A program made the translations under genes and the position numbers. The notes below the pieces were generated by a model. That model saw nothing but the letters and a program-made list of their open reading frames with translations, made no database searches and was not told the DNA's origin. 64,000 nucleotides of DNA from Patescibacteria group bacterium (lineage in GTDB: Bacteria; Patescibacteriota; Microgenomatia; UBA10105; UBA927). Positions 1 through 34,837 of the stretch are shown in pieces. The stretch is from contig JBBTWJ010000003.1 in the NCBI GenBank assembly GCA_038062895.1, positions 27,474 to 91,473 of the forward strand. The letters are read 5' to 3'. Positions within the stretch are counted from its first letter, which is position 1, and each line of letters starts with the position of its first letter.

Positions 1-181
1 TCCTCGGGTAAAGAAGTAGTACGAATGATTAATTTCGTACTTCTGTAACGCCTCAATCAATAATTTTGTATACATCCCAACTCCCCGGTCCTTATGACCG
101 GAATATAAGGGAGAGACATCGATAGCTATATTCATAGAATGACTAGACAAAGGACAATAAACAATAAACTGTCCTAGCTCT

Positions 182-237
182 GCTTATTGCTTATTGCTTA
201 TTGTTTATTGTTTATTGTTTATTGTTTATTGTTTTTC
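182..237. repeat. Heptanucleotide tandem repeat tract: (GCTTATT)x3 then (GTTTATT)x4-5. Its reverse complement (CAATAAA)x2 lies at 160-176, so the two form an inverted repeat. The tract spans the stop codon of the 219..1811 gene.
   Basis: Direct reading: tgcttattgcttattgcttattgtttattgtttattgtttattgtttattgtttttcg. Upstream ggacaataaacaataaactgtcc is its reverse complement. Confidence 0.8.
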
Positions 238-1811
238 GACTTCCCTAACGAAATTATACCCCATGCAGCTAAACCGACCAAACATACCAATGACAGCAAG
301 TTAACCGCAACCCGCAGCGGGGTATCAAAAAAATTTGTCGTAATCAAATGAGTACCCGGGCTAAACGGGACACTGATCATCCCCTTTTCATCCGGCGTCA
401 CATCTAAGCTCTTGCCATCCACTACGACGTTCCAGCCGGGATAATACGCCACATGGATTCGTAGTTTTCCTCCCGAAGAAGAATCGACCTCCCCGACAAA
501 CTTCGTCATTCCTTCCTCTTTCATCGTGACCGATCCTTCTCCGGAAACTATTTCCATGCGCTTTGCGGGTCTCGCCGGCTGCCACGCCATCCAGGCGGTA
601 GAAAAACCATTGCCCAGCGATGACGTCCCATCCGTAAATTCGCGTCGCGAGAGATAGTATGCATCCGGCCGTGGGGCATAGAGTACCGGCTTGGTATAGG
701 AAAATGAAACAAGGCCCGCACATAATGCGACACTTATAGCAATAAAGGGCCATCGAATCCGGGAAAACATCGCTGCCGCTAAAAACGGTGTCACAACGAA
801 GCCCACGGATAATAACCGCCATGGATATTGAAGATTAGGAAGAAGCGGCACCTTCTCCCAAACCGGAATACTAATCTCCAGCATAAGAAATAATGCAACT
901 CCTGCCGCTCCAATAAAAAGTAACGCAAATCGTTCCTTACGCCAAAACAATACCGGCGAGACGAGAAGAATAAGCATAGGGATAAATCCTATTTGATAGG
1001 ACATTTCATCCAGTGCAAAACCAGGACCGGATAGGCCTGTACCCCATGAGGGAATGAGAAGCTGTGCCAATTCGGGAAAATGATCCTGATAATTGACGGT
1101 GTTCAGTCCCACCACATACCTCCTCTCGACGAGAGCGGGAACCCAAAAATATGAAGATAAGATTATCCCCATCACCACCGCAAGCGCCAATGATCTACCC
1201 GTCATCCACGCATACACGATAATGATGGGAAGAAAAATCATCGCGATGATATTATGGCTGACAATAATTCCAGCAATCGCAAAAGCCAAAAGCGTCTTTT
1301 TTTCATAAACGACACAAGACAAAGCAATAAAGACGAATGCGATGGCCAATACTTCCCCAATTGATCCCCGCACGAATATATCGACGAACCAATATGGCGT
1401 AAACGCGCCGATCACACTTCCGGCTACCGCAGGAATTGTTCCGTATAATCGTTTCAACCAATAATACGAAGCGATAATTGCGATGATATACCCCGCTGCC
1501 ATAGTCCACCGGAACGAATCTGCGAGACTCCAACCAAAAAGATGAAAAAGTGAGCCTATATAATTAGGCAACGGGTAAAAAAATGTAAAAAGAGGCACCC
1601 CGTACCCGCTATTTAAACCCGGCGCCCAACGTGGAAAAAAATTTCCTGCGTCAAGCATCCTGCCGAACTCATAAAAACGGATCAGATGATATTCACCATC
1701 ATGCGTCGGTAAAAACCCCGGCACGAAGAGGTAACGGATGGAAATCAAGCTGATCAGAAGAACGATAATCCATCCCACCCATTCGTATATTGGTATCGTA
1801 TTATGTTTCAT
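219..1811 (-). CDS. Polytopic membrane protein, GT-C-like family with N-terminal HDGEYH...FPRW...GYG.P.F.FYPLPNY motif (YfhO/PTPS-related-like). Paralog of 8181..9827, 38515..40206 and 40203..41732.
   Basis: Long ORF with many predicted TM segments and conserved N-terminal motifs shared by four paralogs in the window. Start is placed at the internal ATG (MKHNTIPIY...), which forms an ATGA overlap with the stop of the upstream gene at 1808. The ORF track extends it to 1877. Confidence 0.5.
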   Translation of the reverse strand: MKHNTIPIYEWVGWIIVLLISLISIRYLFVPGFLPTHDGEYHLIRFYEFGRMLDAGNFFPRWAPGLNSGYGVPLFTFFYPLPNYIGSLFHLFGWSLADSFRWTMAAGYIIAIIASYYWLKRLYGTIPAVAGSVIGAFTPYWFVDIFVRGSIGEVLAIAFVFIALSCVVYEKKTLLAFAIAGIIVSHNIIAMIFLPIIIVYAWMTGRSLALAVVMGIILSSYFWVPALVERRYVVGLNTVNYQDHFPELAQLLIPSWGTGLSGPGFALDEMSYQIGFIPMLILLVSPVLFWRKERFALLFIGAAGVALFLMLEISIPVWEKVPLLPNLQYPWRLLSVGFVVTPFLAAAMFSRIRWPFIAISVALCAGLVSFSYTKPVLYAPRPDAYYLSRREFTDGTSSLGNGFSTAWMAWQPARPAKRMEIVSGEGSVTMKEEGMTKFVGEVDSSSGGKLRIHVAYYPGWNVVVDGKSLDVTPDEKGMISVPFSPGTHLITTNFFDTPLRVAVNLLSLVCLVGLAAWGIISLGKSKNNKQ

Positions 1812-3079
1812 TGCAATAATCGTATTCCGGTATAATTTACCCACAACGTGTACAGAAAAAACGGTACCATCCACCATCGTATTCTTCCGGCAGACCAGAA
1901 ATAAATCAGTATGATCAGAAGAAAAGAGAAATCAAGTGCGTAGCGGTATCCAAACTGCATCCACCCCGTGCTGTAGTAAAGAATGGTCGGCAACGCCGTC
2001 GCCGCAATTCCCAACCAAAGCGCCATAATAACATGCGTATACGTTCGCGTCTTTGACCAAACCCAAGGAAGTGTACAGAAAGCAAGAGCAAGAAGCGGAC
2101 TCAAAACAAAAATTGAATTACCGGCTAAATCGATATCGATGACCGGCCCTTTTTTCCAGAAAAAATGCGGCGATGCCACCGTCATATGCCACAGATTCCT
2201 AGGCGCATGGAAAACGGAAAACATGCCATATCGTTGTCTATTTCGGGCAAGATCCGGATCTTCCTGAATATATCGATATCCCGTCTCGAATGGATTACCA
2301 AATCTGGCAGCGTTGTAAAATAAAAAGAGAGCCGTCGTAAACATGATTGGCAATATTAACCATACAATTTTTCGTCGATCTGATGCATGCTGCTTCGTGT
2401 CATAGAGAAACAAAAAAAACGGAATAATAACAAGAAATACGAGTGTTGGTCGCCCAAGAAGGGTCAAGCTGCAACATGCAACGGAACATATATAGTCTGC
2501 TATCGATCGTTTCTTTTTAAGAATTACCGCTACGCCAAAAACCCCGATAAACGTTGAGACAGCTTGATTTACATACCAGACGCTCCCTACTGTCGAAACG
2601 TAAAACTGCATGGTACCGAACGCATAAAGAAACGTACCGAACAAAGGCATCCAGACTGATTGGCGAGGGAACCAATCGTCCCGCAAGCGCCGAAGTGCCC
2701 ACCACACCGTACCCACTGTGAGGCTTCCGAATAAAAGGCCCGTATAGATGGGAGGAACGAATCTGCCGCCCACAAGAAGCTGTAGCGGTATGTGAACAAG
2801 CGGCGCGAGCAAGCCCCAAGGGATATACCACCGGCCGTTATAGGAAATCAGATCATATGTCATTGGCGGATTGGGAATGTCCAACCGGAACGATCTCACG
2901 GAAAGTGCCATAGCATTGACATAGTCTATAACCCATGGTGGATGAAACGTCCATCCTGTCGCCATGCCAAAGTACAACACAAATACCACTGCGACGATCA
3001 CTGCCATAGGGATCAATTTACTTGCGGCCGCATATTTATTGATCCTTTTAAAGTTCATAGACTGTAATTGTTTCATCAC
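1808..3079 (-). CDS. Polytopic integral membrane protein, probable GT-C-fold glycosyltransferase (unassigned family).
   Basis: 423-aa ORF, hydrophobic throughout, sitting in an operon of GT-C genes. Exact start is ambiguous (M1, M2 or M8). Confidence 0.45.
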   Translation of the reverse strand: MMKQLQSMNFKRINKYAAASKLIPMAVIVAVVFVLYFGMATGWTFHPPWVIDYVNAMALSVRSFRLDIPNPPMTYDLISYNGRWYIPWGLLAPLVHIPLQLLVGGRFVPPIYTGLLFGSLTVGTVWWALRRLRDDWFPRQSVWMPLFGTFLYAFGTMQFYVSTVGSVWYVNQAVSTFIGVFGVAVILKKKRSIADYICSVACCSLTLLGRPTLVFLVIIPFFLFLYDTKQHASDRRKIVWLILPIMFTTALFLFYNAARFGNPFETGYRYIQEDPDLARNRQRYGMFSVFHAPRNLWHMTVASPHFFWKKGPVIDIDLAGNSIFVLSPLLALAFCTLPWVWSKTRTYTHVIMALWLGIAATALPTILYYSTGWMQFGYRYALDFSFLLIILIYFWSAGRIRWWMVPFFLYTLWVNYTGIRLLQ

Positions 3080-5748: not shown

Positions 5749-6872
5749 ATTTTTCGTAATCCCCACCGGAGAATCCAAACCCCTACGATATATGAAACAG
5801 GAAACAACGGCAGAAAAAATCGGGATGAAACCACGCCGAGAGAGAGAAAGGCGCTCATAACCATAAACCATACTATCAGCAGCGAAACCGGATCCTTCAT
5901 CGAAATTTTACGGGACGCAAAAAGCCCAATTGCTATCCACCCCAATACCGTGCTTACCGGCCATGTCCATCGCCAGTCGTCGGCTGAAAGGATACGCATA
6001 TCACCCCACCACGCCTGCCATTGATTAAAAAAAAGAAAAGGCCATACGGAAAAAGGAAATATAAGCTTGCTTTGCTGATACAAAAAAATCCACTTCTGAA
6101 ATCCAATAAATTCGGCAATCGTATATCCGCTCATAAAAGTTCTCGTATAGGAAGCCACAAAAATAATACCGGAAATACTCAACCATAGACTTAACCGCAC
6201 TATCTGCTTCCATTGACGCTGCAAACCAAGAAACGCCATAAACGTAGCGACCAGTAAAATCGCAGGAACCACGGTCTTCGTCGCCATAACCAGTCCAATC
6301 ATAACTGCGGTTACAAAAAATGACCTTCGAGACCTCTCCCATAAAAATGCCGCAATAGCAAATAATAACCACGGAAGCTGAATGATATCTAAAAGCGGGG
6401 CAATACGAATTTGACCCAAAAAAAGAGGCTCTGTCGTAAGGACCGCCACAGGAATAAGCGCCGCTACCTTATCTTTAAGCGTCATTGAGCCGATGATCCA
6501 GACCGCCACTAGCGTGAGTATAGCGCTTGGCAACACGATAAACTTGTCATTTTTCATGACAAGAATAAAGAGACCGATCATATATTTACCAAGCGGTGTG
6601 TGCTCAGAATTAATAAGGATGGGATCGACACCCCGGATATAGGCTCCTGCTGCGTAACTAAAAACCGTCTCATCGGGAATAATCCCTGCGTTTTCTTTCC
6701 TGCGGTACTGCGACCCGTCATACGCTTCCCGAAACCCCTTATACATATCATCGGTGTAATACCCAGATGTATACCCCACCCATAAAGGACTGATCGTCTG
6801 TATCAGCGTTAGAACCGTAATTCCCAATAACATCAACGCGACGAGTGTTCGCAATGGAATAAATCTTTTCAT
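5739..6872 (-). CDS. GT39/PMT-like phospholipid-carrier-dependent glycosyltransferase (membrane).
   Basis: 377-aa polytopic ORF. General resemblance to the ArnT/PMT family. Sits in an operon of related genes. Confidence 0.4.
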   Translation of the reverse strand: MKRFIPLRTLVALMLLGITVLTLIQTISPLWVGYTSGYYTDDMYKGFREAYDGSQYRRKENAGIIPDETVFSYAAGAYIRGVDPILINSEHTPLGKYMIGLFILVMKNDKFIVLPSAILTLVAVWIIGSMTLKDKVAALIPVAVLTTEPLFLGQIRIAPLLDIIQLPWLLFAIAAFLWERSRRSFFVTAVMIGLVMATKTVVPAILLVATFMAFLGLQRQWKQIVRLSLWLSISGIIFVASYTRTFMSGYTIAEFIGFQKWIFLYQQSKLIFPFSVWPFLFFNQWQAWWGDMRILSADDWRWTWPVSTVLGWIAIGLFASRKISMKDPVSLLIVWFMVMSAFLSLGVVSSRFFLPLFPVSYIVGVWILRWGLRKIWH

Positions 6873-7417
6873 GGAAGTTTAGGTAACGCGTCACTGCGGA
6901 TACGCTCTGCTTCAGAGAGCGCTGCATGTAAGCCAAGCACTTGAGGAGCTTTTTTCTCCGGAGTCCAAGTAAACTCTTCAGGTACATCCTTTTTGATCTT
7001 AACAATCAACCGCTTGTGCTCTTCCAGTGCCGCCATAAACTCCTGTTTATATTTCTCTATATTCTTTCCTTCATCCCTAGCCTGTCTCAAGGAAACGGAA
7101 ACGCGCGGAAGAGCAATATTGGATCGCTCAAGGGCGTCAAGCGCCAATAGGTATTGGTTATACTCGAAGAGTATTTTGGCTTCCACTAGCGCTTTATCTG
7201 ACTGTTCCAACTCATACCGGTATGAAGCCAAGTTCCCCCAATACCAATATTTCTTCGCTTCATCAATTACCCGGGAGACGCGATACAGTTTATTCCCGGG
7301 CATGTAGGAGGGATAGGGCAAGACATAAGCGGCGGTGACTTTCTGCAGGGGTAGATAGCAGATAACAGATAACAGAAAGCAGAAAGAAAGCAATAATAAT
7401 TTTCTTTTATTATTCAT
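6869..7417 (-). CDS. Secreted or periplasmic protein with N-terminal signal peptide, unknown function.
   Basis: N-terminal KRKLLLLSFCFLLSVICYLPLQ hydrophobic segment followed by a charged, helical body. The signal peptide is encoded by a heptamer repeat tract. Confidence 0.45.
   Translation of the reverse strand: MNNKRKLLLLSFCFLLSVICYLPLQKVTAAYVLPYPSYMPGNKLYRVSRVIDEAKKYWYWGNLASYRYELEQSDKALVEAKILFEYNQYLLALDALERSNIALPRVSVSLRQARDEGKNIEKYKQEFMAALEEHKRLIVKIKKDVPEEFTWTPEKKAPQVLGLHAALSEAERIRSDALPKLP
7353..7390. repeat. Heptanucleotide repeat tract (AGATAAC/AGAAAGC-type, x5) encoding the signal peptide LLSVICYL of the 6869..7417 product.
   Basis: Direct reading: agatagcagataacagataacagaaagcagaaagaaagc. 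Confidence 0.7.
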
Positions 7418-8184
7418 GATCGTTGTTGATTTTTAATATAGCGCATATATGCTAAAGGGTGATGCAACGCTGAAAATAAAGCGAAGAGAAATCCCCAATA
7501 CCCGTCAACAAACCCTTTGTGCCGCATGAATATGGAAAAAAATGTTACGACCGGTTTGAAAAAGTTGTACTCCACATACGTTAATAAGTTCAACGGTAAT
7601 TTTTTTTCTTTATACTCTTGCGCCGTCAACGAAATATACGCATTTGCCTTTCTCCAGTAATCTCCAATCGAACCGTATGGATAATGTAGCAACGGGTTGT
7701 TGAGATGCCCCACTTTTCCGTCAACCACAATCTGTTCGTGGACGCTCTTACAGGGAAAATGCGCACTTCCCCGCCTGATAAGCCGGATGAGATAATCCGG
7801 ATACTGACCGCCTTTACTTAACCACCGTCCACAGAAAAAATTCTTTCTTGGAATAAAATATCCCTTATCTGTTATCTGTTGTCTGTTATCTGTTATCTGT
7901 CGAATCTCTTTTGCAAGCTCTGGCGTCACTACCTCATCAGCGTCAAGCTGGAGAATCCAGTCTCCTTTACACGCTTCTAGCGCTTTTTGCTTGTTGATGT
8001 GAAAAATAGGCGGATTATCCGTCTGTATAATACGGGCTTTATACTTGGCAGCTGTCTCAAGGGTTCGGTCGACCGATCCTCCATCCACAAGAACAATCTC
8101 ATCGGTCCACGATACGATAGAAGCTAAACAAGCATCAAGCTTCTTTTCTTCGTTATATGTGGCGATAGCGACGGAAAGTTTCAT
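7414..8184 (-). CDS. GT2 family glycosyltransferase, WaaE/KdtX-like. Paralog of 33152..33919 and 35457..36359.
   Basis: N-terminal LSVAIATYNEEKKLDACLASIVSWTDEIVLVDGGSVDRT followed by a DADE (DxD) motif. A typical GT2 fold signature. Confidence 0.75.
   Translation of the reverse strand: MKLSVAIATYNEEKKLDACLASIVSWTDEIVLVDGGSVDRTLETAAKYKARIIQTDNPPIFHINKQKALEACKGDWILQLDADEVVTPELAKEIRQITDNRQQITDKGYFIPRKNFFCGRWLSKGGQYPDYLIRLIRRGSAHFPCKSVHEQIVVDGKVGHLNNPLLHYPYGSIGDYWRKANAYISLTAQEYKEKKLPLNLLTYVEYNFFKPVVTFFSIFMRHKGFVDGYWGFLFALFSALHHPLAYMRYIKNQQRS
7866..7900. repeat. (TTATCTG)x5 heptanucleotide tandem repeat inside the GT2 CDS. On the coding strand it encodes QITDNRQQITDKG.
   Basis: Direct reading: ttatctgttatctgttgtctgttatctgttatctg. 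Confidence 0.8.
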
Positions 8185-9827
8185 AATGAACGACCTTTTT
8201 TACGTTGAAAAAACACAGTGAAAAGCAAAATGATTAAACCTCCTAGGCTCAATAAGTTTGCCGCCATGCGTAGTTTCGTTTCTCCGAAGCGTACTACAAC
8301 ACGGTGGTCTCCCGCGGAAGTCTGAAACGTCATGAGTCCACGATAATTAGGATCCTGGTAAATAAGATCACGGACAAGATCCAGAGGCCTCCCGTCTACG
8401 AATACCTCCCACCCGGGAAAATACAATGTATTCTCGAGAATTCTTACATCCGTTGCCGCACTCACCACAAACTCATGACGCGTACTACTGCGGTGACCAG
8501 AAAGAATGGTTCCCTGTCCTTCAATAACTTCGTATTGAGCGAGCGGCCGATGCTCCATAAAGCGTATGGACCAAATAGGGCTGCTCTCGCCCGTGTCCGT
8601 GGTTCCTTCATAAATATCGCTGTAATATGCATCCGGCTTGACGATATATTCTGGTGCGCGCCACATAGGTACCGTGGATACCACGATAACGGACAATAAA
8701 CAAAAAACAGTAAACACGCGGAGTCGCTTTGGAATGTACGCGACAGTGATTGCACCCACAACAGATGAAAGAATCACCGTTACGGTTAACAGTCTCCATG
8801 GAAATTGAAATTTTTGTAAGAGCGTTACGGTATTCCATACAATTTTTGATCCATCCGTCATCAGCCATAACGTCACCAAAATACACACCAATGCGCCCCC
8901 CACGAACCATCGCACGAAACGCACTTTGGTGCGAAAAAATAAGATAAGCGCGGCCGAGATGCTCACCCACTGCGGAAGCCCCAACGCTTTCGTAAACTCT
9001 TGGCCTCCGCCATAGTTCCAGGGCGATATAAAAAACCATTGCCACGGGACAAACCGGTCAGTAAAGTCTCCCTTCGTCACGATGTCCCGAAGCGTATATT
9101 TACCTTCAAAAAATGCCGGTATCCAGAAGAAAGCGCTTAAGACAAAACCGAGTAGTGAATAGTGAGTAGTGAGTAGTAAAAAGCGAGAGGAACGCTTGGA
9201 TTCAAATACATATAAATATATTGTATATCCTATTATTAATGGCAATACCATGATGGCGATAGCATTATGGGACAAAAGTAGCCCTGCCATCGCCAGCGCG
9301 GTAATCACTCCGCCCGATTTGCTCTGATGATTTCTTGCTAAAGTGAGTAAACCATAAAAAATAAGCGGTGGAAAAATAAATGCGACGTGCTCCCCTATCG
9401 CCCCGCGTACATACAGATCAACGAACCGGTAGGGAGCAAAACCATAGAGTATGGCGGCAGCAAATCCGGGGACTGCTCCCCATGCAGCCCGCGCAAACAC
9501 ATACATCGCCAGCATGCTTACCACAAAGGAAACTACAAAGACGAGCTTCGTGCTATCGACAAACGAAAATCCTATCGCATGAAATAGTGACGCTATATAA
9601 GAAGGAAAGGGATAAAGAAACATGAGGATTGGATGCCCATATCCCCAGTTTAGGTTACCCGCCCAACGGGGGATAAGATTTCCTTCAGAAAGCGACGTAT
9701 AAAAATTGGCAATCCGGGCGACGTGATCGGGCGTATCATGCCCCCTGGGGAGTCCAGGGTGAAGAAGATCAAATAATGGCAATAATGCAATCACTACGAG
9801 AACAACAATGAGTATTCGTGCTTTCAT
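8181..9827 (-). CDS. Polytopic membrane protein, GT-C-like HD..H family (paralog of 219..1811).
   Basis: N-terminal PRGHDTPDHVARIANFY...LIPRWAGNLNWGYGHPILMFLYPFPSY conserved with paralogs. ATGA overlap with the downstream GT2 gene. Confidence 0.5.
   Translation of the reverse strand: MKARILIVVLVVIALLPLFDLLHPGLPRGHDTPDHVARIANFYTSLSEGNLIPRWAGNLNWGYGHPILMFLYPFPSYIASLFHAIGFSFVDSTKLVFVVSFVVSMLAMYVFARAAWGAVPGFAAAILYGFAPYRFVDLYVRGAIGEHVAFIFPPLIFYGLLTLARNHQSKSGGVITALAMAGLLLSHNAIAIMVLPLIIGYTIYLYVFESKRSSRFLLLTTHYSLLGFVLSAFFWIPAFFEGKYTLRDIVTKGDFTDRFVPWQWFFISPWNYGGGQEFTKALGLPQWVSISAALILFFRTKVRFVRWFVGGALVCILVTLWLMTDGSKIVWNTVTLLQKFQFPWRLLTVTVILSSVVGAITVAYIPKRLRVFTVFCLLSVIVVSTVPMWRAPEYIVKPDAYYSDIYEGTTDTGESSPIWSIRFMEHRPLAQYEVIEGQGTILSGHRSSTRHEFVVSAATDVRILENTLYFPGWEVFVDGRPLDLVRDLIYQDPNYRGLMTFQTSAGDHRVVVRFGETKLRMAANLLSLGGLIILLFTVFFQRKKGRSL
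9151..9178. repeat. (AGTAGTG)x4 heptanucleotide repeat inside the 8181..9827 CDS (encodes LLLTTHYSLL).
   Basis: Direct reading: agtagtgaatagtgagtagtgagtagta. Confidence 0.7.
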
Positions 9828-9832
9828 AAAGA

Positions 9833-11491
9833 TTAGCGATCAGCGATACGTATGGCCTCTTTTCCATCCAGATAATTGATCGTCAATAGGTTCGCAGCAG
9901 ACATTTCCTTAGGAGTACCGATAAATAATGTTTTTCCGTCCTTGGTCTCGCTATCCCAATGGATCGGCCGGAATTCATACCGGTCGAATTTGTTTTTTAT
10001 CTCGGCGAACCCACCGGATGACGTCCCTCCTTCAGACAAGTATTTGGCAGGGTCGTATTTGAGGAAGTAGAGAAAAAACATGTGTGGCTGTTCCAGCTTG
10101 GTCGATACGACTACCTTCGTGTACCCGGCACCTTCTTTTTGTGCATAATCCACCGCCTGCTTGTACCCGTATTGCCAATACTCGGAAACCTCCCGGTTCA
10201 TATGAGAAAAATACATATGAAGGAAATACATAATATTAATAACAAATAATAAAATAAACGAATAAGTAAATAAACGAATAAAAAAGGAACGTTTGTTATC
10301 TTCATGCCAACGCAATGCCTGTAGCACGCCGAAGGCGGTAAACACCTGAAACGTGGGCAGAAAAACGAGAGTGCGGATTGCGTGGGGCAATCCCGTCGTG
10401 GGTGAAGCTGCAACCGGTGCCAACAAAAACCAGCCGATCATTATTTTTGAGAATTTTCCTCCCTGCTTACCGACCGTCATCATACCCCACAGGAGAAACG
10501 GCAGCTCTGCAAGGTATAAAAGTCCCATATCCGGCGCATGATGACGTGGATTGTCTCCGGTCACGAACAACCACCGGAACGAAAAATGAGAAAGATAACC
10601 ATCTAGAATTGTTGTAGCCCACACAATCCGCCGGTTATCAAATAGAACACCAAGAAGATTACCGGATTTGCCATCCTGGTCGAGCTTGCGGACACTTTTA
10701 GCAAGTAATCCTGTTTGGTCCGCGAGTGAACTCGTTCCCCGAAGCCTCATGATAGTTGTAGGATTGAGAAGCACCGTAAGAAGCGGTGCAATGGTTAGGA
10801 TACCAACGAGCACCCCGACCACTACGGATCGCTTCTGCATCAATAACTCCTTCCGGTATATCCACGTCAGGAGCAGCACAAGAAGCGGAACAAATATTCT
10901 CTCGCTGTGATAGGCATACAGCCCTAGCCCAAACAAAAAGGAGCTTGCTAAAAGCATTCTCTTTTGCTGTAAACCTTTTAGAAATGCCCACACCGCCCAA
11001 ATATTTATCGTCACCCCAATATTGGCTTCAAAAGCGATACGAGAAAACTGGATATGCCAGGGGGAAAGAGCCAACAAAAGCGAAGCTATTGTTGGCAAGT
11101 AAAAAGTCTGTAAAGTCGAAAGTCCATAAAGTTTATTAAATTTTTCCCGAGTTAATTCCTTCACTAAAAAATATGTTCCCAAAACCGCTAAAATGCCTGC
11201 AATCGCAGAAGGAAGACGTACGGCCCAGGTTTCCAAACCAAATACAGCAACGGCAGGAAGCGCAAGATACATATAAAGTGGAGGCTTGTAATCATCGTAC
11301 GAACGAAGTGAAAGTGGAAACCAGGTACTGTATTCATCGCGGCCGGTTTTTAATACCGAATACGCGTTATACCCTAAAGCCGCCTCATCCCAATCCGGAC
11401 TTGGAGGAATAGTTCCCAATTGCCACAACCGGAGCATCGCGGCTAGCACCACAATCATGAGTAGCGCAACCTTATTATTCATAGTTTTCAT
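9833..11491 (-). CDS. GT39/GT83 ArnT/PMT-family polyprenyl-phosphate-sugar-dependent glycosyltransferase.
   Basis: N-terminal DWDEAALGYNAYSVLKTGRDEYS motif (the catalytic DE and YxAxSxLxTGxDE loop typical of ArnT/PMT-like enzymes) followed by ~12 TM helices. Confidence 0.7.
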   Translation of the reverse strand: MKTMNNKVALLMIVVLAAMLRLWQLGTIPPSPDWDEAALGYNAYSVLKTGRDEYSTWFPLSLRSYDDYKPPLYMYLALPAVAVFGLETWAVRLPSAIAGILAVLGTYFLVKELTREKFNKLYGLSTLQTFYLPTIASLLLALSPWHIQFSRIAFEANIGVTINIWAVWAFLKGLQQKRMLLASSFLFGLGLYAYHSERIFVPLLVLLLTWIYRKELLMQKRSVVVGVLVGILTIAPLLTVLLNPTTIMRLRGTSSLADQTGLLAKSVRKLDQDGKSGNLLGVLFDNRRIVWATTILDGYLSHFSFRWLFVTGDNPRHHAPDMGLLYLAELPFLLWGMMTVGKQGGKFSKIMIGWFLLAPVAASPTTGLPHAIRTLVFLPTFQVFTAFGVLQALRWHEDNKRSFFIRLFTYSFILLFVINIMYFLHMYFSHMNREVSEYWQYGYKQAVDYAQKEGAGYTKVVVSTKLEQPHMFFLYFLKYDPAKYLSEGGTSSGGFAEIKNKFDRYEFRPIHWDSETKDGKTLFIGTPKEMSAANLLTINYLDGKEAIRIADR

Positions 11492-13224
11492 GGTTTATCA
11501 AAAAGAACGAAAGCAGTTTCCCCATTGAGACGCTTAATGGTCGACAAAATACGTTCTCCCCCGGGCGCTTCACTGGACAAAGCCACGTAGAGTATCCCGC
11601 GGTCAAAGGATCCGATTCCTTTATCGGTAAATCTATATTTCCCAAATCCGAAGACATGATAAAATCCGGCCGCATCAAACGTGGATTTCTTCGACGCGAG
11701 ATACGCGGATGGATCCGTTCGTGTAAAAAAAAGTGTATACATGTATGATCTTCCGTACGCTTCGCTGAGGACTACCCCATCATACGAGTCCTCAAATTGT
11801 TGCATCTGGGCAATGGCCTGCTTGTATCCATACTGCCACTCGGCAGAATATTCCTGGGCATAGTGATTGAAGTAGTTATGCCAGAAGTAAGAAAAACTTG
11901 CTATAAACAATAAGCAATAAACAATAAACACGAGATTACTTTTGACTTTTTCAGCCAAAGGCTGATCCGCCTCTGGAGGAGACTTTTGACTTTTGACTAG
12001 GGCTATCAATCCATACGCGGTGAAAATATGCCATACCGGCAAAGTATTTTCGATCCGAAGTGCATGCGGCGTCTCCCGTGCCACTCCTGCCGGCAATATC
12101 GCAAGTACGATCCAAAGAATGAGCGTCCACGCTAATTTCGTATCAACCGCAAACAACCGATAGATTCCGTAGACGAGAAACGGCGCTTCGATAAGATACA
12201 ACTGCCCCACGTCTTGAAGCGAAAACTTCGGATTACCATCTCCCCGGATAAAAAGAAACCAAGGCTGCAAGTGATCAAAGAGATGCTTGAGATATTCGAT
12301 ACCAAACCCAACTCTCCGATTGTGAAAAATTCTTGCAAAAAATGTATTACCATCCACGGCCATCCGATCGTTAGATTTCTCAATGATCGACAGGTCTGAA
12401 AAAATATTGACTTCGGTAAACCGGAGTCTGGCTTCCGGCGAAACCAAATGGGGCATGAGCGGAGCCAGAAGAATAAGTCCCAAAAAAATGCCCACGAGGG
12501 CATAGCGTTTATATGCCCATATCTTGTCCCGAATCCAAAAAAAGAATAACAGAGCAAGAAATGGTGCCACGTACCGAGCGCTATTAAAGGTATACATAGC
12601 CAGCACAAACGGCATCCAGCAAACCATAAGAACACGCGGTCTTTCTCGGGAGAGCAAAACAAGCCATATACCGAACAACAGAATGGTAAGTGCAATATTT
12701 GCCTCCCACCCGGCCCGGGAGAGCTGAATATGCCAAGGCGATACCGCCAGCAAAAACGCACTAAGGAGTGCTATTGCTTGCAAATTCCAATTTTCAAATT
12801 CCAAATTCCAAAATTTTGGCGCTTGGTGCTTGCTTGGTATTTGATGCTTGATGCTTGGTGCTTCCTGACGAAAAAGCTCTAACACCAATAGATACGTGAG
12901 CAATACAGCGAGCGTGCCGGCTATAACCGACGGCAATCGCACCGCGAGTTCCGTAAGACCAAAAACTGCAATAAACGGGACCGTGAGGTAAACCGCAAGT
13001 GGGGGTTTGTAATCTCCGTAACCCACGAACGTATCTATCGGCAGAAATCTTCCATGCTCATCCTTCCCCGTTTTCAGAATACTATATGCGTTATATCCTA
13101 TGGATACTTCATCCCAAGATAAAGAAGGCGGTACGCTTGAAACGCCGATGAAACGAATATATGCAGCTATGACAACGATGGCAATCAAAAAAAAATGATC
13201 CCTTAATAGTTTCCGGAATTTCAT
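11488..13224 (-). CDS. GT39/ArnT-like glycosyltransferase (tandem paralog of 9833..11491).
   Basis: SLSWDEVSIGYNAYSILKTGKDEHG motif and polytopic profile. ATGA overlap with the downstream paralog. Confidence 0.7.
   Translation of the reverse strand: MKFRKLLRDHFFLIAIVVIAAYIRFIGVSSVPPSLSWDEVSIGYNAYSILKTGKDEHGRFLPIDTFVGYGDYKPPLAVYLTVPFIAVFGLTELAVRLPSVIAGTLAVLLTYLLVLELFRQEAPSIKHQIPSKHQAPKFWNLEFENWNLQAIALLSAFLLAVSPWHIQLSRAGWEANIALTILLFGIWLVLLSRERPRVLMVCWMPFVLAMYTFNSARYVAPFLALLFFFWIRDKIWAYKRYALVGIFLGLILLAPLMPHLVSPEARLRFTEVNIFSDLSIIEKSNDRMAVDGNTFFARIFHNRRVGFGIEYLKHLFDHLQPWFLFIRGDGNPKFSLQDVGQLYLIEAPFLVYGIYRLFAVDTKLAWTLILWIVLAILPAGVARETPHALRIENTLPVWHIFTAYGLIALVKSQKSPPEADQPLAEKVKSNLVFIVYCLLFIASFSYFWHNYFNHYAQEYSAEWQYGYKQAIAQMQQFEDSYDGVVLSEAYGRSYMYTLFFTRTDPSAYLASKKSTFDAAGFYHVFGFGKYRFTDKGIGSFDRGILYVALSSEAPGGERILSTIKRLNGETAFVLFDKP
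11905..11931. repeat. (AAACAAT)x4 heptanucleotide repeat. On the coding strand (TTTATTG) it encodes the TM segment VFIVYCLLFI of the 11488..13224 product.
   Basis: Direct reading: aaacaataagcaataaacaataaacac. Confidence 0.75.
12781..12866. repeat. Two adjacent heptamer tracts, (CAAATTC)x5 and (TTGGTGC/TTGATGC)x6, inside the GT39 gene. They encode a low-complexity loop ...HQIPSKHQAPKFWNLEFENWNL.
   Basis: Direct reading: caaattccaattttcaaattccaaattccaaaattttggcgcttggtgcttgcttggtatttgatgcttgatgcttggtgcttcc. Confidence 0.8.
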
Positions 13225-29779: not shown

Positions 29780-30825
29780 AGAGCTATCTTTGTGAGTAAC
29801 GCATCAAATGCATCACAAAATCTGTTCACGGAGAACTGTTTGCTTTTTTCAATGGCATTCTTCCGCAAATCCATTGCACCATCTTTATTCATGATAACGT
29901 CATTGGTTTTCCCGAGAAGCTCATCAACGGTTCTCCAAAGAAATCCATTTTTACCATCGTCGACCACTTCCGGTTGACCCCCACCCGCAAATACGACAGG
30001 CACTGCCCCCGCGGACATAGCCTCAACCGTGGTTATTCCGAAATGCTCCATCCACCGCGGATCCGTCTCCCCATATCCGGCCGCGTGCCAATACACCGAC
30101 GCCCGGCAGTAGTAGTCCGTAAGCTGATCATGAGAAATATTTGGCTCAATACATATGGGTAATCCCTTCGTCTTTTTTTTCAACGCATCAACGTAATCCT
30201 GATCTCCCGGCAGAAAACCTCCGGCGAGTACAAGTCTCCAACCATTCCATTTTGTATTTTTAAATCCTTTTGCAAACGCTTCGATAAGCACGTGCTGCTT
30301 CTTGGTAGTATGAAATTCTGAAAATCGTCCTATCGAAAGAATGAGGTTTTCCTTCTTCCGGCCGTCAGCCTCGACAGGACAAACCGGTGGATAGATAACG
30401 ATGGCACGCTGACTCACCCGGGCATCAAGCGCGCGCTTCGTAAAATCAGAATTACACACCACGGCTTGATACCGCCAAAGTTTTATTGGTGAATAGGAAA
30501 CCTTCGGAAACGGGACCTGGTAGTGAAGAATATTTAATGTGGCAAGCGAAGACGGAATGCTCCCATCGCTTAAAACAAAGATTAGATCGTATTGTCGGGA
30601 TAATAGTAATTTTTTGAATACATTAGATGCTCTAAATATATTTCGAGTAACTTTTATCCTCGATAGATCTATATCGAGCCGTCCTTGAGCTTCATTAAGG
30701 ATATTTTTATTATCCCAAAAAACAGAAACAGTATGTGCCTTGGACCAATGGGATGCAAGAGTAAGCGTATACCGCTCGCCTCCTCCTTGGGTGTCCATGT
30801 AGGGATTATAAATTCCGATTTTCAT
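29776..30825 (-). CDS. GT4 family (GT-B fold) glycosyltransferase.
   Basis: C-terminal EHFGITTVEAMSAGAVPVV (the GT4 E-x7-E-type motif). Start refined to MKIGIYNPYMDTQGGGE (track 30891), which gives an ATGA overlap with the YfhO gene at 30822. Confidence 0.7.
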   Translation of the reverse strand: MKIGIYNPYMDTQGGGERYTLTLASHWSKAHTVSVFWDNKNILNEAQGRLDIDLSRIKVTRNIFRASNVFKKLLLSRQYDLIFVLSDGSIPSSLATLNILHYQVPFPKVSYSPIKLWRYQAVVCNSDFTKRALDARVSQRAIVIYPPVCPVEADGRKKENLILSIGRFSEFHTTKKQHVLIEAFAKGFKNTKWNGWRLVLAGGFLPGDQDYVDALKKKTKGLPICIEPNISHDQLTDYYCRASVYWHAAGYGETDPRWMEHFGITTVEAMSAGAVPVVFAGGGQPEVVDDGKNGFLWRTVDELLGKTNDVIMNKDGAMDLRKNAIEKSKQFSVNRFCDAFDALLTKIAL

Positions 30826-33125
30826 GGCTTTATAATACGTATGACCTTTGCCAACAATGCCAGCAATAAAACTCCAAACCCCGCAAACCACAACCCTACC
30901 ACGAAACTTCCCGGCCAGTATACCATCCGGATGGTGTGTTCGCCCGAAGGCACAAAAACGGAGCGGAAATCATAATCAGCACGATAAATCTGTACATTCT
31001 GACCATCTATGGTCGCTTTCCACCCCGGATCGAATGCATCGGAAAGAAATAATAGCTTGGGAGTCCCTGAAGATGTACGCATGACCACGTCGTTTGGGGT
31101 GTACGTAATGATATCAACTCCACCTGCTCCTGATTGCACAAACACTTTTGGATCAGTTTCTAATACAAGAGTTTGCCCAGCATCAAATCCTTCTGAAAAA
31201 AGTGTGTCGATGATCTGTTGATCAGTAGAACGAACAAGATAGGATGAAGCAAAAAAAGCACGCGGCAGGGATTTCTGATTTTCAAATACCTCATAATGTT
31301 CATTTCTGTATATACTTTTATAATACGGATATTCCCAGTACGGGTACGCCCATGAGAATCGGCCGTCACTTAACCGGTGGACGATATAGCGCACTCCCAA
31401 CAATTGCAATGCTTGTTCAGAAAATTTCGCGAGTTTTGCAAATTGCACCACAGAACGTTCCGGAACAATAATTTTACCCTCGCTTAACGAGCGGATAAAT
31501 TCTCCATATCGTTTTTGATATACCGCGTCGTATCCCTCAATTCCCAAAAGTCCGAACCCGTTCGTGACTTCCCCTCCAAGGTTGCCTAATATTCTCTCGT
31601 GGTCAACTGTATTCTTAAGAAATGACAGCACCGCGACTTCCGGATATACATATTCCCGCGGGTCAAACGGCATCCATTTGGCCGCGTACCGGACCATATC
31701 TAAAGTCGCCAGCAGCATAAATAATCCAATAACCAATGATCGAATGATCTTCCACTTTCTCATACAACCCATGACGGCAAACACACAAAATCCCAGAGCC
31801 AAACCTGTGGGAAACAAAAGATTCCTTCGCGCAATGGCGAGTTTCTCTATCTCAAACGGATGAAAGAACAAAACGACAGACCATGTGGCTATAAGAAACA
31901 GGGATATGATCATCGCAGTCAGTAATATCGGAGACGTTCTTTTCTTCTCCCAATCCTCCCGTAACCCATCCAAACCGTATGCTGCGATCACACAAAGGGA
32001 AAAACTCACCAGAACGATGATCCGGACTGCGTAACTTGTAGAAATTGCAGGCAATTTAAGCCAAACCACGAATACGTTGACGGGTGAGGGAGTCGCAATG
32101 AGAAATGAAATGATGGCAACCCCCAAGAAAAATCCTATCCTCCTTGTCCGACGAACGATCGCATATACGGCCAGTAATAATGGTATGACGCCAATATAGG
32201 ATGCCCATTCGGCGTAATATCCAAACCAATCATTACGGGTCACGGGATTTCCATAGAAATCAGGCGAAAATAGTGTGATGAGATACCGCCATGCGATACC
32301 GCCCCCTTGAGTAAATAATTCACTGCGCACGGACCTGCTGTACGCATCAAAAGAGAGTAGAATTTGCGGCGCGCTTATCATCAAACCAAACAATACAGCC
32401 AACCCCAACTCAATGACTGCTTTTATATTCTTCCTCGAGAAACCCTGATAGATGACAAATGCAGTTACTGTAATCAACACATAGACACTCATCTGAAAAT
32501 GCCCAGATAGAAATGACCATGCCAGACCTGACGAAACGATCACAGGGTTGTACCATGACCGTTTATTGACATGCATGAGCACTACAGCCAATAGAAGCGG
32601 CAACCAAAGCACTGCCCACGAGAGCGTCCCATAGGCCATCCAGACGGTTAAAAATCCACAAAACATGAATGCGATTGATCCGATGAAGCCTGCTGCCTGT
32701 GACCGGTCTAAACCGCGAAGCAATATATACATAAAAATACCGGCCAATAGCGGTTGGAGAAGAATACTCAAACTCCACGCATCAAGAAACGGAAAAACGA
32801 AATAAAGGAGATTGACGGGAGAAAACACGGCAGTCTGATAATTAGCCGCATGCGGCGAGCCGGAGAAGCTATAGGGATTCCAAAGTGGCACCTGACCCTG
32901 TCGCCAACTATCTATAGTTATTTTCTTCCAAGGGTAAATCTGTGTGACGACGTCCGGCATCGCATTATTTTTAAGAGCCATTCCGTATTGTGCACTCCAC
33001 GGTGAAAAAAAAGTAACCAGATATTTACTCGGGAAAGGGACCAACCCCTTAAAAAAATAGGGCGAGGAGAAAATAAACCAAACAATGATGATCGCAAATA
33101 TTGGCCAGTATTTTTTTATTAACAT
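30822..33125 (-). CDS. YfhO-family membrane protein, paralog 3.
   Basis: VPLWNPYSFSGSPHAANYQTAVFSPVNLLYFVFPFLDAW motif. 767 aa. Confidence 0.65.
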   Translation of the reverse strand: MLIKKYWPIFAIIIVWFIFSSPYFFKGLVPFPSKYLVTFFSPWSAQYGMALKNNAMPDVVTQIYPWKKITIDSWRQGQVPLWNPYSFSGSPHAANYQTAVFSPVNLLYFVFPFLDAWSLSILLQPLLAGIFMYILLRGLDRSQAAGFIGSIAFMFCGFLTVWMAYGTLSWAVLWLPLLLAVVLMHVNKRSWYNPVIVSSGLAWSFLSGHFQMSVYVLITVTAFVIYQGFSRKNIKAVIELGLAVLFGLMISAPQILLSFDAYSRSVRSELFTQGGGIAWRYLITLFSPDFYGNPVTRNDWFGYYAEWASYIGVIPLLLAVYAIVRRTRRIGFFLGVAIISFLIATPSPVNVFVVWLKLPAISTSYAVRIIVLVSFSLCVIAAYGLDGLREDWEKKRTSPILLTAMIISLFLIATWSVVLFFHPFEIEKLAIARRNLLFPTGLALGFCVFAVMGCMRKWKIIRSLVIGLFMLLATLDMVRYAAKWMPFDPREYVYPEVAVLSFLKNTVDHERILGNLGGEVTNGFGLLGIEGYDAVYQKRYGEFIRSLSEGKIIVPERSVVQFAKLAKFSEQALQLLGVRYIVHRLSDGRFSWAYPYWEYPYYKSIYRNEHYEVFENQKSLPRAFFASSYLVRSTDQQIIDTLFSEGFDAGQTLVLETDPKVFVQSGAGGVDIITYTPNDVVMRTSSGTPKLLFLSDAFDPGWKATIDGQNVQIYRADYDFRSVFVPSGEHTIRMVYWPGSFVVGLWFAGFGVLLLALLAKVIRIIKP

Positions 33126-33126
33126 G

Positions 33127-33175
33127 GTTACTTTGTAATTTAGTTACTTTGTTACTTTGTTAATTTGTTACTTTG
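33127..33175. repeat. Octanucleotide tandem repeat (TTACTTTG/TAATTTAG)x6 spanning the stop codon of the GT2 gene 33152..33919 and the short intergenic region.
   Basis: Direct reading: gttactttgtaatttagttactttgttactttgttaatttgttactttg. Confidence 0.75.
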
Positions 33176-33919
33176 TTGCATCTCCCACAGCTTGGCATAT
33201 GTGATAAATATACTAAATGCCTGATAAATGCTTTCGATCCATCCGAGCGTTCCCGCCCGCCAACCTCCTTGCCCAATAAACGAATCAAAAAATGCAGTGG
33301 ACATAACCCGTATGAACCGCCACCAAACGACTGGAGGATGCTCCGCATCAAACCGTAATCTGGCTTCCGCTTGGGACCATTCATTTGTTTTTGTGACCAT
33401 TTCTCCCAACGACCGATGCGTATCGTGCAGCAAGGGAGCATGTAATCTCCCTATTTCGCCCGTTATGCGTGCTGTTTCGTGGAGTTCTCCATACCACTCG
33501 GTAAGCGCGTCTTTGCGCATGAGTCGCAGAATATATTCATCCGCCGGCCACTCATGACCCAAATAATAATTTTTCCTCCTAATTTTGTATCCGCTGAAAG
33601 ATGAAAGCTGATCGCGGATAACTTTTCTAATTTCTTTAGCAAGCTCTTCCGTCACCACCTCATCGGCGTCAACATATAAGAGCCAGCCGCTAAGGGCTTT
33701 ATCTTTCGCTATATTTCTAAGTTTGGCAAAATCGACAACACCCTGGGCTTTGACAATCACCGCTCCTGATCGAAGAGCAAGTTCAGTTGTTTTATCCATT
33801 GATCCATTATCTACGACGATCATCTCATCTGCCCACTTGAGAGACGATAAACACTTCAAAATCCGTGCTTCTTCATTTTTGGCGATAATGATAGCTGATA
33901 TATTCATGCTTTTCCCCAT
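33152..33919 (-). CDS. GT2 glycosyltransferase, WaaE/KdtX-like (paralog).
   Basis: ISAIIIAKNEEARILKCLSSLKWADEMIVVDNGSMDKT...DADE motifs. Confidence 0.75.
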   Translation of the reverse strand: MGKSMNISAIIIAKNEEARILKCLSSLKWADEMIVVDNGSMDKTTELALRSGAVIVKAQGVVDFAKLRNIAKDKALSGWLLYVDADEVVTEELAKEIRKVIRDQLSSFSGYKIRRKNYYLGHEWPADEYILRLMRKDALTEWYGELHETARITGEIGRLHAPLLHDTHRSLGEMVTKTNEWSQAEARLRFDAEHPPVVWWRFIRVMSTAFFDSFIGQGGWRAGTLGWIESIYQAFSIFITYAKLWEMQQSNKLTK

Positions 33920-34836
33920 TTTCCTACTAAAGCGTCTATTACCGCCTTTCGATATATTGATGGTCCTACAAAGACGAACCGCAGTGCCTCCCTAATAAGC
34001 GCAAGTTTTGTCCGTGCGCTCGCATAACGCAAACCTACGAGAAGTCGATTCCGCGTCATATAATACTGGTGAAGTTCACTGCCCACGCCACTTGAACCGG
34101 CATTATTGTGCCATAGTATTGATTGCGGAACATACAGGAGTTTATATCCCCCTTGTTTTGCCCGTAGACAAAAATCTACATCTTCCAGATATGCAAAAAA
34201 TTTCCCATCAAATAATCCAACATCCTCAAATACCTGGCTTTTGATCATCATCGAACAACCGGTGACGAACGAAGTTTGTTCCAAAATTTCATATTGTCCC
34301 GTATCCACCTCATCCACACCGCGATGGGAGGCATACATATTCTTCCAATCAATAATGCCTCCGGCATACCAAAGCACGCGACCGCGATCCTTCACTCCAT
34401 AACGATCTTTGTGATATTCCCGGCCCGGCGCAAAATAAATCTTTGATCCCGCAATACCTACACGACTATCTTGAAATGCGTCAACGAGTGCTGCCAAAGC
34501 ATTTGGATCCACCACGGTGTCATTATTCAAAAGCCACACGAAATCAGCTCCCTGTTCCAACGCTTTCCTAATTCCGGCGTTATTACCTCCCGAAAACCCA
34601 AGATTCCGACCGGTCTCTATAACGTCCACGTCAGGAAAATTCTTCTTTATTACTATCACAGAATCATCGGTCGAACCATTGTCAACCACGATACTTTTGA
34701 CATTCAACTTTTGTCCTGCGGAGCTGGATCCCGCTTCGCGGGAACTTTTTACTTTTAACTTTTTTAACGAAGCGAGACACGCAAGCGTATCCTTTTTTCC
34801 GTTCCAATTAACGAGTATGATGGATATATTCGTCAT
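33904..34836 (-). CDS. GT2 glycosyltransferase (WbbL-like) with a low-complexity K/S-rich insertion.
   Basis: ISIILVNWNG...VVDNGSTDDS, DTVV and LEDVD motifs. Start refined to MTNISIILVN (track 34884). Confidence 0.65.
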   Translation of the reverse strand: MTNISIILVNWNGKKDTLACLASLKKLKVKSSREAGSSSAGQKLNVKSIVVDNGSTDDSVIVIKKNFPDVDVIETGRNLGFSGGNNAGIRKALEQGADFVWLLNNDTVVDPNALAALVDAFQDSRVGIAGSKIYFAPGREYHKDRYGVKDRGRVLWYAGGIIDWKNMYASHRGVDEVDTGQYEILEQTSFVTGCSMMIKSQVFEDVGLFDGKFFAYLEDVDFCLRAKQGGYKLLYVPQSILWHNNAGSSGVGSELHQYYMTRNRLLVGLRYASARTKLALIREALRFVFVGPSIYRKAVIDALVGKWGKA

Positions 34837-34837
34837 A

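Follow-up and report, generated by a model that had tools for sequence, protein, structure and literature searches.

Two heptanucleotide tracts lie in adjacent genes of a groundwater Patescibacteria metagenome-assembled genome from the Hainich aquifer, within a 64,000-nt stretch of contig JBBTWJ010000003.1 (the window). One is in a gene for a family 2 glycosyltransferase (GT2) and the other in the signal peptide of the small secreted protein encoded beside it. With a probability of about 60%, we read both as microsatellites born by replication slippage, filtered by the reading frame and located at permissive sites whose positions are conserved. They are part of a pattern that belongs to one conserved gene block of Microgenomates-type Patescibacteria, which comprises several GT-C membrane glycosyltransferases, the GT2 and the small secreted protein. 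The original prediction had taken the two tracts for contingency loci that phase-vary surface glycosylation. What holds of this is that they are real microsatellites in intact glycosylation genes, that a slip shifts the frame and that copy number changes among orthologs; the arrays are, however, short and interrupted, and OFF alleles were not found. An on/off switch is possible, if unproven, and classic high-frequency phase variation is not supported.

The GT2 tract was recovered by Tandem Repeats Finder (TRF) at 7865-7900 (period 7, 5.1 copies, 93% matches, consensus TTATCTG), in agreement with the five copies predicted. Its forward-strand letters are two TTATCTG units, one TTGTCTG, two further TTATCTG and a final T. 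On the coding strand, three CAGATAA units read CAG ATA ACA GAT AAC AGA TAA, with an in-frame TAA every third unit. Because the unit contains TAA, an interruption of the array is forced, and the frame stays open because of a T>C change in the third unit (AGA-CAA). The variant unit leaves 2.3 and 2.7 perfect units on its two sides, and the longest perfect runs measure 16, 18 and 19 nt (2.3-2.7 units); the heptad QITDNRQ is present 1.7 times in the GT2 array. Simulated copy changes of −2, −1, +1 and +2 units each gave a stop at codon 101, which bears out the frameshift expected from gain or loss of one unit, and simulated loss of three units kept the frame and left a product of 249 aa.

The product of the tract-bearing gene belongs to glycosyltransferase family 2 with a GT-A fold. 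It matches PF00535 (E=1.2e-20; 74.6 bits against a cut-off of 23.3), and the DADE motif, invariant in an alignment of 40 orthologs, supplies the DxD signature of this fold. An AlphaFold (AF2) model with a predicted local distance difference test score (pLDDT) of 85.7 resembles SunS, ThuS, TarS and TarP; among solved sequences, the glycosyltransferase domain of GmaR comes nearest (E=1.7e-22). In the model, the tract-encoded segment RQITDNRQQITDK forms the end of a helix (residues 88-99), a turn and the start of a strand (106-111). The product is named 'MAG: glycosyltransferase family 2 protein [Patescibacteria group bacterium]' at NCBI, and the closest named relatives are from Candidatus Gottesmanbacteria. 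The WaaE-like label that had been attached to it found no support: no NCBIfam equivalog reached its cut-off (best 46.8 bits against 182), and the neighbors are GT-C and PMT-type transferases and not a lipopolysaccharide core cluster of the WaaE/KdtX kind. Pfam annotation shows the window up to about 53 kb to be a single large envelope-glycan region with PMT_2, PMT, YfhO and PTPS_related GT-C proteins, GT2, GT1, a flippase and sugar-nucleotide enzymes. As expected of an envelope determinant, the GT2 gene lies inside a run of about 50 kb of envelope-glycan genes, next to a gene whose product has a signal peptide.

The signal-peptide tract is more degenerate. TRF placed it at 7353-7383 (period 7, 4.4 copies, 87% matches), and on the coding strand it consists of CTTTCTG twice, TTATCTG twice and CTATCTA, translated as FCFLLSVICYL (residues ~11-21). 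The claim of a related five-copy tract therefore stands for about five related units, only two of which are exact TTATCTG. That the two adjacent genes share a unit was likewise confirmed, but in inverted orientation (CAGATAA in the GT2 coding strand, TTATCTG in that of its neighbor). The 14-mer TTATCTGTTATCTG, at no more than one mismatch, occurs in the window only at the two tracts, with 0.01 matches expected. The inverted arms are 31 nt long, 87% complementary and 484 nt apart. An invertible element or a conserved RNA stem formed by them was considered and rejected, as the complementarity is absent in 13 relatives, including one with 79% identity to the window (L005). Since the inverted relation is not conserved, we treat it as a single case of unit sharing and not as a structure.

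The two tracts do not stand alone. TRF found 11 period-7 arrays in the window, 10 of them within the first 13 kb (Table 1), where at least six distinct heptamer units occur. The window has eight perfect period-7 runs (at least ~2.4 copies), whereas 20 dinucleotide shuffles gave none, and among periods of 5 or more the enrichment was confined to period 7. The TTATTGT unit family occupies four places (154, 191-232, 8693 and 11907), against 0.08 matches expected. In the flanks, about 10 kb beyond each side of the window, one weak tract was present on the side with more glycosyltransferases and none on the side with housekeeping genes.

Table 1. Heptanucleotide tracts of the window and the two genes of main interest (window positions)
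Feature	Position	Strand	Details
GT2 (GT-A fold) glycosyltransferase gene, 256 aa	7414..8184	-	its stop and the next gene's start codon overlap in ATGA
Heptanucleotide array, coding-strand CAGATAA, 5.1 units, third unit CAGACAA	7865..7900	-	encodes RQITDNRQQITDK; GT2 residues 95-107
Gene for 182-aa secreted protein, weak DUF5667 match	6869..7417	-	signal peptide, then conserved mature N-terminus YVLPYPSYMPGNKLY
Degenerate heptanucleotide array (coding strand CTTTCTG x2, TTATCTG x2, CTATCTA)	7353..7390	-	signal-peptide hydrophobic core
ACTACTC x4	9150..9177	-	residues ~217-227 (LLLTTHYSLLG) of 548-aa GT-C protein, open reading frame (ORF) 8181..9827; fixed-length hypervariable membrane segment
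Weak TTATTGT-family tract	8693..8716	-	residues ~370-378 of the 548-aa GT-C gene; second hypervariable zone
TGTTTAT x4 (TTATTGT family)	11903..11930	-	encodes VFIVYCLLFI in 578-aa PMT_2 (ORF 11488..13224); fixed-length membrane segment, relative position 0.75
Short AAAAGTC x2.6 (coding strand)	11981..11998	-	loop preceding the 11903..11930 membrane segment of PMT_2
Adjacent (GCATCAA)x3.3 and (GAATTTG)x4.6	12781..12863	-	encode SIKHQIPSKHQAPK and FWNLEFENWNLQ; PMT_2 (ORF 11488..13224)
(ACAATAA)x7.3 array, then inverted (TTATTGT)x2.3	154..234	-	last codons and TAA stop of ORF 219..1877
Weak ACTTTTT x3	34744..34764	-	GT2 gene 33904..34884; sole period-7 array outside the first 13 kb

The same preference was seen in related genomes. 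Our comparison set comprised 80 orthologous loci from GTDB species representatives (1.34 Mb) and covered Gottesman-, Woese-, Roizman-, Davies-, Shapiro-, Levy-, Beckwith- and Chisholmbacteria. Perfect runs in these loci numbered 69 for period 7 against two each for periods 8 and 9, and four remained after shuffling. At a TRF score of at least 50, the arrays numbered 53 for period 7, 26 for period 14 and seven for period 21, and no other period had more than nine; period 7 was also the sole enriched tandem period in 119 metagenome loci. Tract density peaked at the GT2 and downstream gene (1.41 per 10 kb), was 0.55-1.07 per 10 kb over the upstream GT-C genes and fell to 0.19-0.35 beyond +6 kb. 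The units were diverse across loci, which rules out a single dominant unit family of the kind of the cyanobacterial STRR. The host genes had a Pfam profile close to the one given by genes drawn at random from these loci, with only PTPS_related appearing enriched and sugar-nucleotide enzymes depleted; because the sampled loci consist almost entirely of glycosylation genes, this test cannot separate gene type from location.

What is conserved in these arrays is the site, while the unit changes. The GT2 tract occupies the only hypervariable loop in the 40-ortholog alignment, where 0-37 extra residues are found and loop lengths range from 24 to 44 aa. In other species exactly this position holds (GACTTTC)4.6, read as RLSTFDFRLST, (TTGGAAA)4, read as GNWKLEIGN, and further units including (GACCAAC)4.6, (CAAATCA)4.4, a GTCCTAA-like unit in five copies, (GTCCTCA)5.6 and (CAATGGT)4.9. 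A scan of 81 GT2 orthologs for strict lag-7 runs returned nine, eight of them at residues 99-102, and none at lags 6, 8 or 9. In at least six species, heptamers also encode the signal-peptide core of the protein downstream. In the 548-aa GT-C protein a single lag-7 hot spot (residues 214-228) was present in 9 of 43 orthologs; it aligns without length variation, ranks in the most variable 4% of protein windows, and includes arrays that are 100% perfect over 4.7-4.9 units. The PMT_2 proteins have one tract site at relative position 0.21, in a loop of variable length, and one at 0.73, in a membrane segment of fixed length; the window's adjacent pair at 12781..12863 is a species-specific insertion in that loop, at 0.21-0.24. 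These tract sites are among the least conserved segments of their proteins, and the tract region diverges faster than its flanks (mean identity 36% against 60%). At sites in membrane segments and signal peptides the units are rich in T and, whichever frame is read, specify L, F, I, V, Y and C; those in soluble loops are A-rich and hydrophilic. Peptides such as NWKLEIG, RLSTFDF, LFIVYCL and QITDNRQ in proteins of the Candidate Phyla Radiation (CPR) are translated microsatellites and not protein motifs.

The GT2 loop also takes other in-frame inserts (L008, 10244-10375; L036, 10253-10381; P0045, P0049). A palindromic element splits a GACTTT[CT] array in L008, and an insert of ~20 aa containing KDWIPGQARNDN, which looks like a small dispersed repeat that is read through, was observed in several Gottesmanbacteria.

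In the comparison set, 90 of 102 tracts (88%) were located in intact long ORFs, and none of the ~90 intragenic tracts in 81 genomes was out of frame. Six frameshift candidates were returned by a screen of ORF geometry, and all proved to be tracts between two different genes. A degenerate metagenome scan, in which GT2 loops of any length from 72 to 102 nt could be detected, yielded 119 loci; 117 loop lengths were divisible by three and none of these 117 was out of frame, and the remaining two loci were out-of-frame motif matches without stops. Inactivation by a ±1-unit change at appreciable frequency has left no sign in more than 200 alleles. Selection on the frame is also visible in the units themselves: 27% of intragenic units contain a stop in cyclic reading against ~50% expected, all stop-containing arrays are imperfect, and all perfect arrays are stop-free. 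The GT2 array of the window falls in the stop-containing class. Several sister tracts are found at a stop codon, at a gene end or between genes, positions from which a slip cannot turn a gene on or off.

Comparison of strains and close relatives revealed copy-number change in one instance. Two GT2 ortholog alleles with 97% DNA identity (P0020 and P0125) differ by exactly 21 nt, that is, three GACTTTC units (4.6 against 1.6); this is the only strain-level change seen, and it is in frame. The same loop holds a 1.6-unit GACTTTC seed in one locus (L014) and 4.6 units in another (L007). Between the window and its 79%-identical relative L005 the arrays are of equal length, with G in place of A in the first three units, and the last two units of the relative are decayed. 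Equal length combined with a changed base in successive units indicates homogenization, and the CAAATAA array of the relative shares the stop-avoiding variant with the CAGATAA array of the window. Perfect and decayed versions of one array were also found in related species (L014 against L019 and L011; the window against L009). For the organism of the window itself, which is uncultured, the tracts were identical in L001-L004, L085, L086, L088 and L089, which come from five distinct contigs; in all, at least five independent assemblies, from at least four samples, have the tracts unchanged. L085 differs from the window by three single nucleotide polymorphisms and a T8/T9 run at the contig end. 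Exact-protein look-ups of the GT2 and two neighbors returned identical tracts only. The GT2 protein cluster has a single member, and the clusters of the neighbors hold no length variants beyond differences in start-codon call, together with one G>W substitution outside the tract. A metagenome scan with exact flanks and a 15-45 nt gap returned no loci and is hence uninformative on copy number. For the comparison of strains in copy number and frame that the original prediction called for, orthologous alleles differ by three units, the window organism is invariant in at least five assemblies, all of them consensus sequences, and no OFF frame was observed.

In the protein cluster of the closest relative species (P0002), a 198-aa form of GT2 (P0123) occurs on three contigs of up to 129 kb. 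It was considered as a heptamer-slip allele and rejected, since the frameshift lies at an A-run (..EKK.. to ..EKNCR*) and not in the heptamer array. Either genuine slippage in the homopolymer or a fault of assembly could account for the truncation.

We propose the following mechanism. Replication slippage in a 7-nt register would make, expand, contract and re-homogenize short arrays, acting at the least constrained segments: the GT2 surface loop, the cores of signal peptides, those halves of membrane helices that face the lipid, loops between helices, the ends of genes and intergenic DNA. Selection would remove any array that breaks the frame or is at odds with its protein surroundings. Changes would be fixed in three-unit steps (21 nt, one heptad) where the length of a loop is free, and where length is fixed, the array would overwrite a constant 10-11 codons. 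Units would be stop-free and hydrophobic at membrane sites and elsewhere hydrophilic or accompanied by rescuing substitutions. A slip of ±1 unit in either tract is predicted to turn the gene off, by the stop at codon 101 in GT2 and by a stop within the signal peptide in its neighbor, which makes the tracts latent frameshift generators. With no more than two to three perfect units apiece, both are most probably mutational hot spots of low rate and not tuned high-frequency contingency switches.

Several findings weigh against slippage and tolerance as the full explanation. Units recur at non-homologous sites of one genome, with 11 identical same-locus pairs against 0.74 expected (P<0.0005); in the window, TTATCTG is found at two loci and TTATTGT at four, and elsewhere ATACTTT is shared by a GT-C membrane segment and the neighbor's signal peptide (L017) and AATTGGA by a GT2 loop and a PMT_2 loop (L076). 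The 100%-perfect arrays in a fixed-length membrane segment, across deep divergence, imply repeated re-homogenization without net length change. Tract density is centered on one gene block and not on all glycosylation genes, and the persistence of positions over deep divergence could alternatively reflect selection for mutability. Since assemblies are consensus sequences, minority alleles of ±1 unit would be invisible in them.

A rather unlikely alternative is that the tracts are genuine contingency loci after all, in which the arrays would be maintained by second-order selection because rare ±1-unit slips toggle individual glycosyltransferases and the secreted protein, with the ON state in the majority. 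The benefit would be surface-glycan diversity within the population, for example against phage or for host attachment. Patescibacteria (CPR) are ultra-small and probably episymbiotic, and they need the cell surface for attachment and phage defense. Both tracts have a unit length not divisible by three and are in envelope-glycosylation genes, and a ±1-unit change truncates GT2 at codon 101. Persistence of arrays at the same positions over deep divergence, with unit turnover and re-homogenization, is also what orthologous contingency loci show; copy number shifts between close strains in a GT2 ortholog, and the tracts are concentrated in one block of paralogous, individually dispensable-looking GT-C genes. 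Two Logan contigs from two runs (L002 and L003) both start at window position 11975, six bases before the GACTTTT x2.6 tract at 11981-11998; as no 16-mer there recurs in the rest of the window, heterogeneity of the population may lie behind the break. Against this alternative, the ~90 intragenic tracts and 117 GT2 loops include no OFF allele, at least five assemblies and the protein clusters hold no variant, and the sole strain-level change is in frame. The arrays are also short (mode ~4.6 units, and here at most 2.7 perfect units) compared with the 6-93 units of proven heptanucleotide switches (PMC2651432, PMC3046976); they are mid-gene and not at the 5' end, and many sister tracts at stops or in intergenic DNA yield no switch.

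In a broader version of this idea, which we regard as unlikely, Microgenomates would keep an ancient set of heptanucleotide 'mutability sites', each at a fixed position, in as many as a dozen of the envelope-glycosylation genes of a genome. The arrays would be actively re-homogenized, perhaps through a process that is templated or specific to period 7 and by which a unit also spreads between sites, and would provide low-frequency on/off switching together with heptad-length variation of the surface glycan. If true, the CPR would thereby have its first described system of phase variation by repeats, with a design unlike that of pathogen contingency loci (short arrays, mid-gene, fixed length, peptide-compatible units).

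A function at the level of the product or of the nucleic acid appears very unlikely. Here the number of heptads would tune the length of the loop and the behavior of the enzyme, as in NeuO, or the heptamers would act as binding or pairing sites, with the GT2 and signal-peptide tracts, for example, as a long-range mRNA stem or a site of recombination or inversion. In its favor are the in-frame GT2-loop alleles that differ by one heptad, the range of loop lengths, the complementary arms of the two tracts and the sharing of a unit among sites of one genome. A second inverted pair, at 154-234, could form a 16-bp A/U hairpin after ORF 219..1877 (minimum free energy −22.7 kcal/mol, z = −2.66). In addition, two at least 90%-identical alleles from the same 90% cluster (P0046 and P0136) are nearly identical except for a patch of ~25 residues spanning the pre-loop helix and the tract, which is of the GTCCTAA type in one and of the GACTTTC type in the other; this swap suggests recombinational exchange of the loop region. 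However, complementarity between the GT2 and signal-peptide tracts is absent in 13 of 13 relatives, units vary by species with no common motif, the Pfam annotation of the window showed no recombinase, both genes would be destroyed if the stretch between the arms were inverted, and the fixed-length membrane sites cannot vary in heptad number. Scans around the tracts for sigma-70 promoters and terminators gave no promoter signal exceeding the shuffle level. That the tracts are chance low-complexity DNA or an assembly artefact is refuted: the signal-peptide tract is degenerate and AT-rich DNA can imitate repeats, but shuffles held no period-7 runs, the shared 14-mer has an expectation of 0.01, the sequence is identical in independent assemblies from different pipelines, and the same phenomenon recurs in ~200 independent contigs from many studies.

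Among known systems, NeuO of Escherichia coli K1 is by our comparison the closest mechanistic analogue. The array of this CUS-3 prophage O-acetyltransferase, a poly-psi variable-number tandem repeat, consists of AAGACTC units, three of which encode one RLKTQDS heptad, and the enzyme is ON only in frame (PMC3046976). As in the GT2 gene, a heptanucleotide array forms part of the coding sequence for an enzyme that modifies surface glycans, three units make one heptad (RLKTQDS in NeuO; QITDNRQ here and RLSTFDF in orthologs), full-length protein is made only at frame-keeping copy numbers, and the in-frame heptad number varies, here in orthologs only. The NeuO array, however, begins 2 nt after the start codon, spans 2-93 perfect stop-free units and switches on and off at high frequency (PMC3046976), whereas the GT2 array lies at codons 95-107, with five units, a forced interruption, a unit containing TAA, and no copy variation or OFF allele. 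The GT2 tract thus lacks the stop-free unit right after the start that would mark a NeuO-type switch. The two enzymes are also unrelated, one a left-handed beta-helix acetyltransferase and the other a GT-A glycosyltransferase.

The simple sequence repeat contingency loci of Haemophilus and Neisseria, of which pglE is an example, offer a second comparison. These loci (tetra-, penta- and heptanucleotide, including hmw1A/2A and the HI1369 homologue) resemble the present tracts in having non-triplet units in or beside surface genes, with copy number that varies between strains and repeat positions conserved in orthologs (PMC2651432). They differ in having 6-38 or more units and OFF alleles as a routine feature of genomes (PMC2651432), compared with a mode of ~4.6 units and no OFF allele in more than 200 here. 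On/off variation of accessory envelope glycosylation, the theme behind the original prediction, is also known from the gtr-type operons of Salmonella and phages (PMC2909390). The mechanism there is Dam/OxyR epigenetic promoter switching and not repeat slippage; no switch of this kind was found here, where none was searched for.

The strong and unexplained preference for period 7 has its nearest likeness in genome-specific heptamer families, such as STRR in heterocystous cyanobacteria, GGGAATC in Xanthomonas, GGGGA(T/C)T in Nostoc and TAACTGA in Beggiatoaceae (PMC4692102, PMC4679880). Heptameric repeats are over-represented in many bacteria, and a polymerase footprint has been hypothesized as the reason (PMC4692102, citing Mrazek 2007). 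In those families, as here, one unit is found at several loci of a genome, in some cases in inverted pairs, and close relatives differ in length and sequence (PMC4692102, PMC4679880). They are, however, reported to be intergenic, with one or few units per genome (PMC4692102, PMC4679880), whereas the tracts described here are predominantly intragenic, at conserved protein positions, and comprise many peptide-fitted units per genome. Period 7 and the sharing of units within a genome match an STRR-like family; the location of 90 of the 102 tracts inside genes and the six or more different units within 13 kb do not.

Whatever their function, the tracts offer clean natural data for asking why heptamers are over-represented in bacteria, combining a single period, fixed protein positions, peptide-fitted units, within-genome sharing and alleles that are always in frame. 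For CPR bacteria, 7-nt arrays in glycosylation genes also provide a concrete handle, testable at the level of reads, on whether the cell surface is diversified. To our knowledge, repeat-slippage phase variation has been documented almost only in host-associated pathogens, and full-text literature searches found nothing on it, or on such tracts, in Patescibacteria/CPR.

Some further repeats were noted in passing. One Logan contig ends inside the (ACAATAA)7.3 array, at window position 205, and the full 552-aa product of that gene is on record from one contig only. A-rich repeats of period 15-16 (2.3-2.8 copies) at 10199-10285 are inside another PMT_2 gene (9833..11491), in the region homologous to the membrane-segment tract site at 0.73 of its paralogue. 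At 33127-33177, the minus strand holds 6.4 copies of an 8-nt repeat (ACAAAGTA-like) that is scored with period 24 as well; it fills the short spacer between ORF 33152..33919 and the YfhO-type ORF 30822..33125, ending just upstream of the ATG of the latter. In one genome (L081), five heptamer arrays lie in short spacers directly upstream of start codons (4341-4377, 10834-10864, 14054-14085, 15706-15741 and 16151-16177), and the homologous spacer of a relative (L051, 4160-4188) holds (AGTAAGG)4.1, a tandem Shine-Dalgarno-like array.

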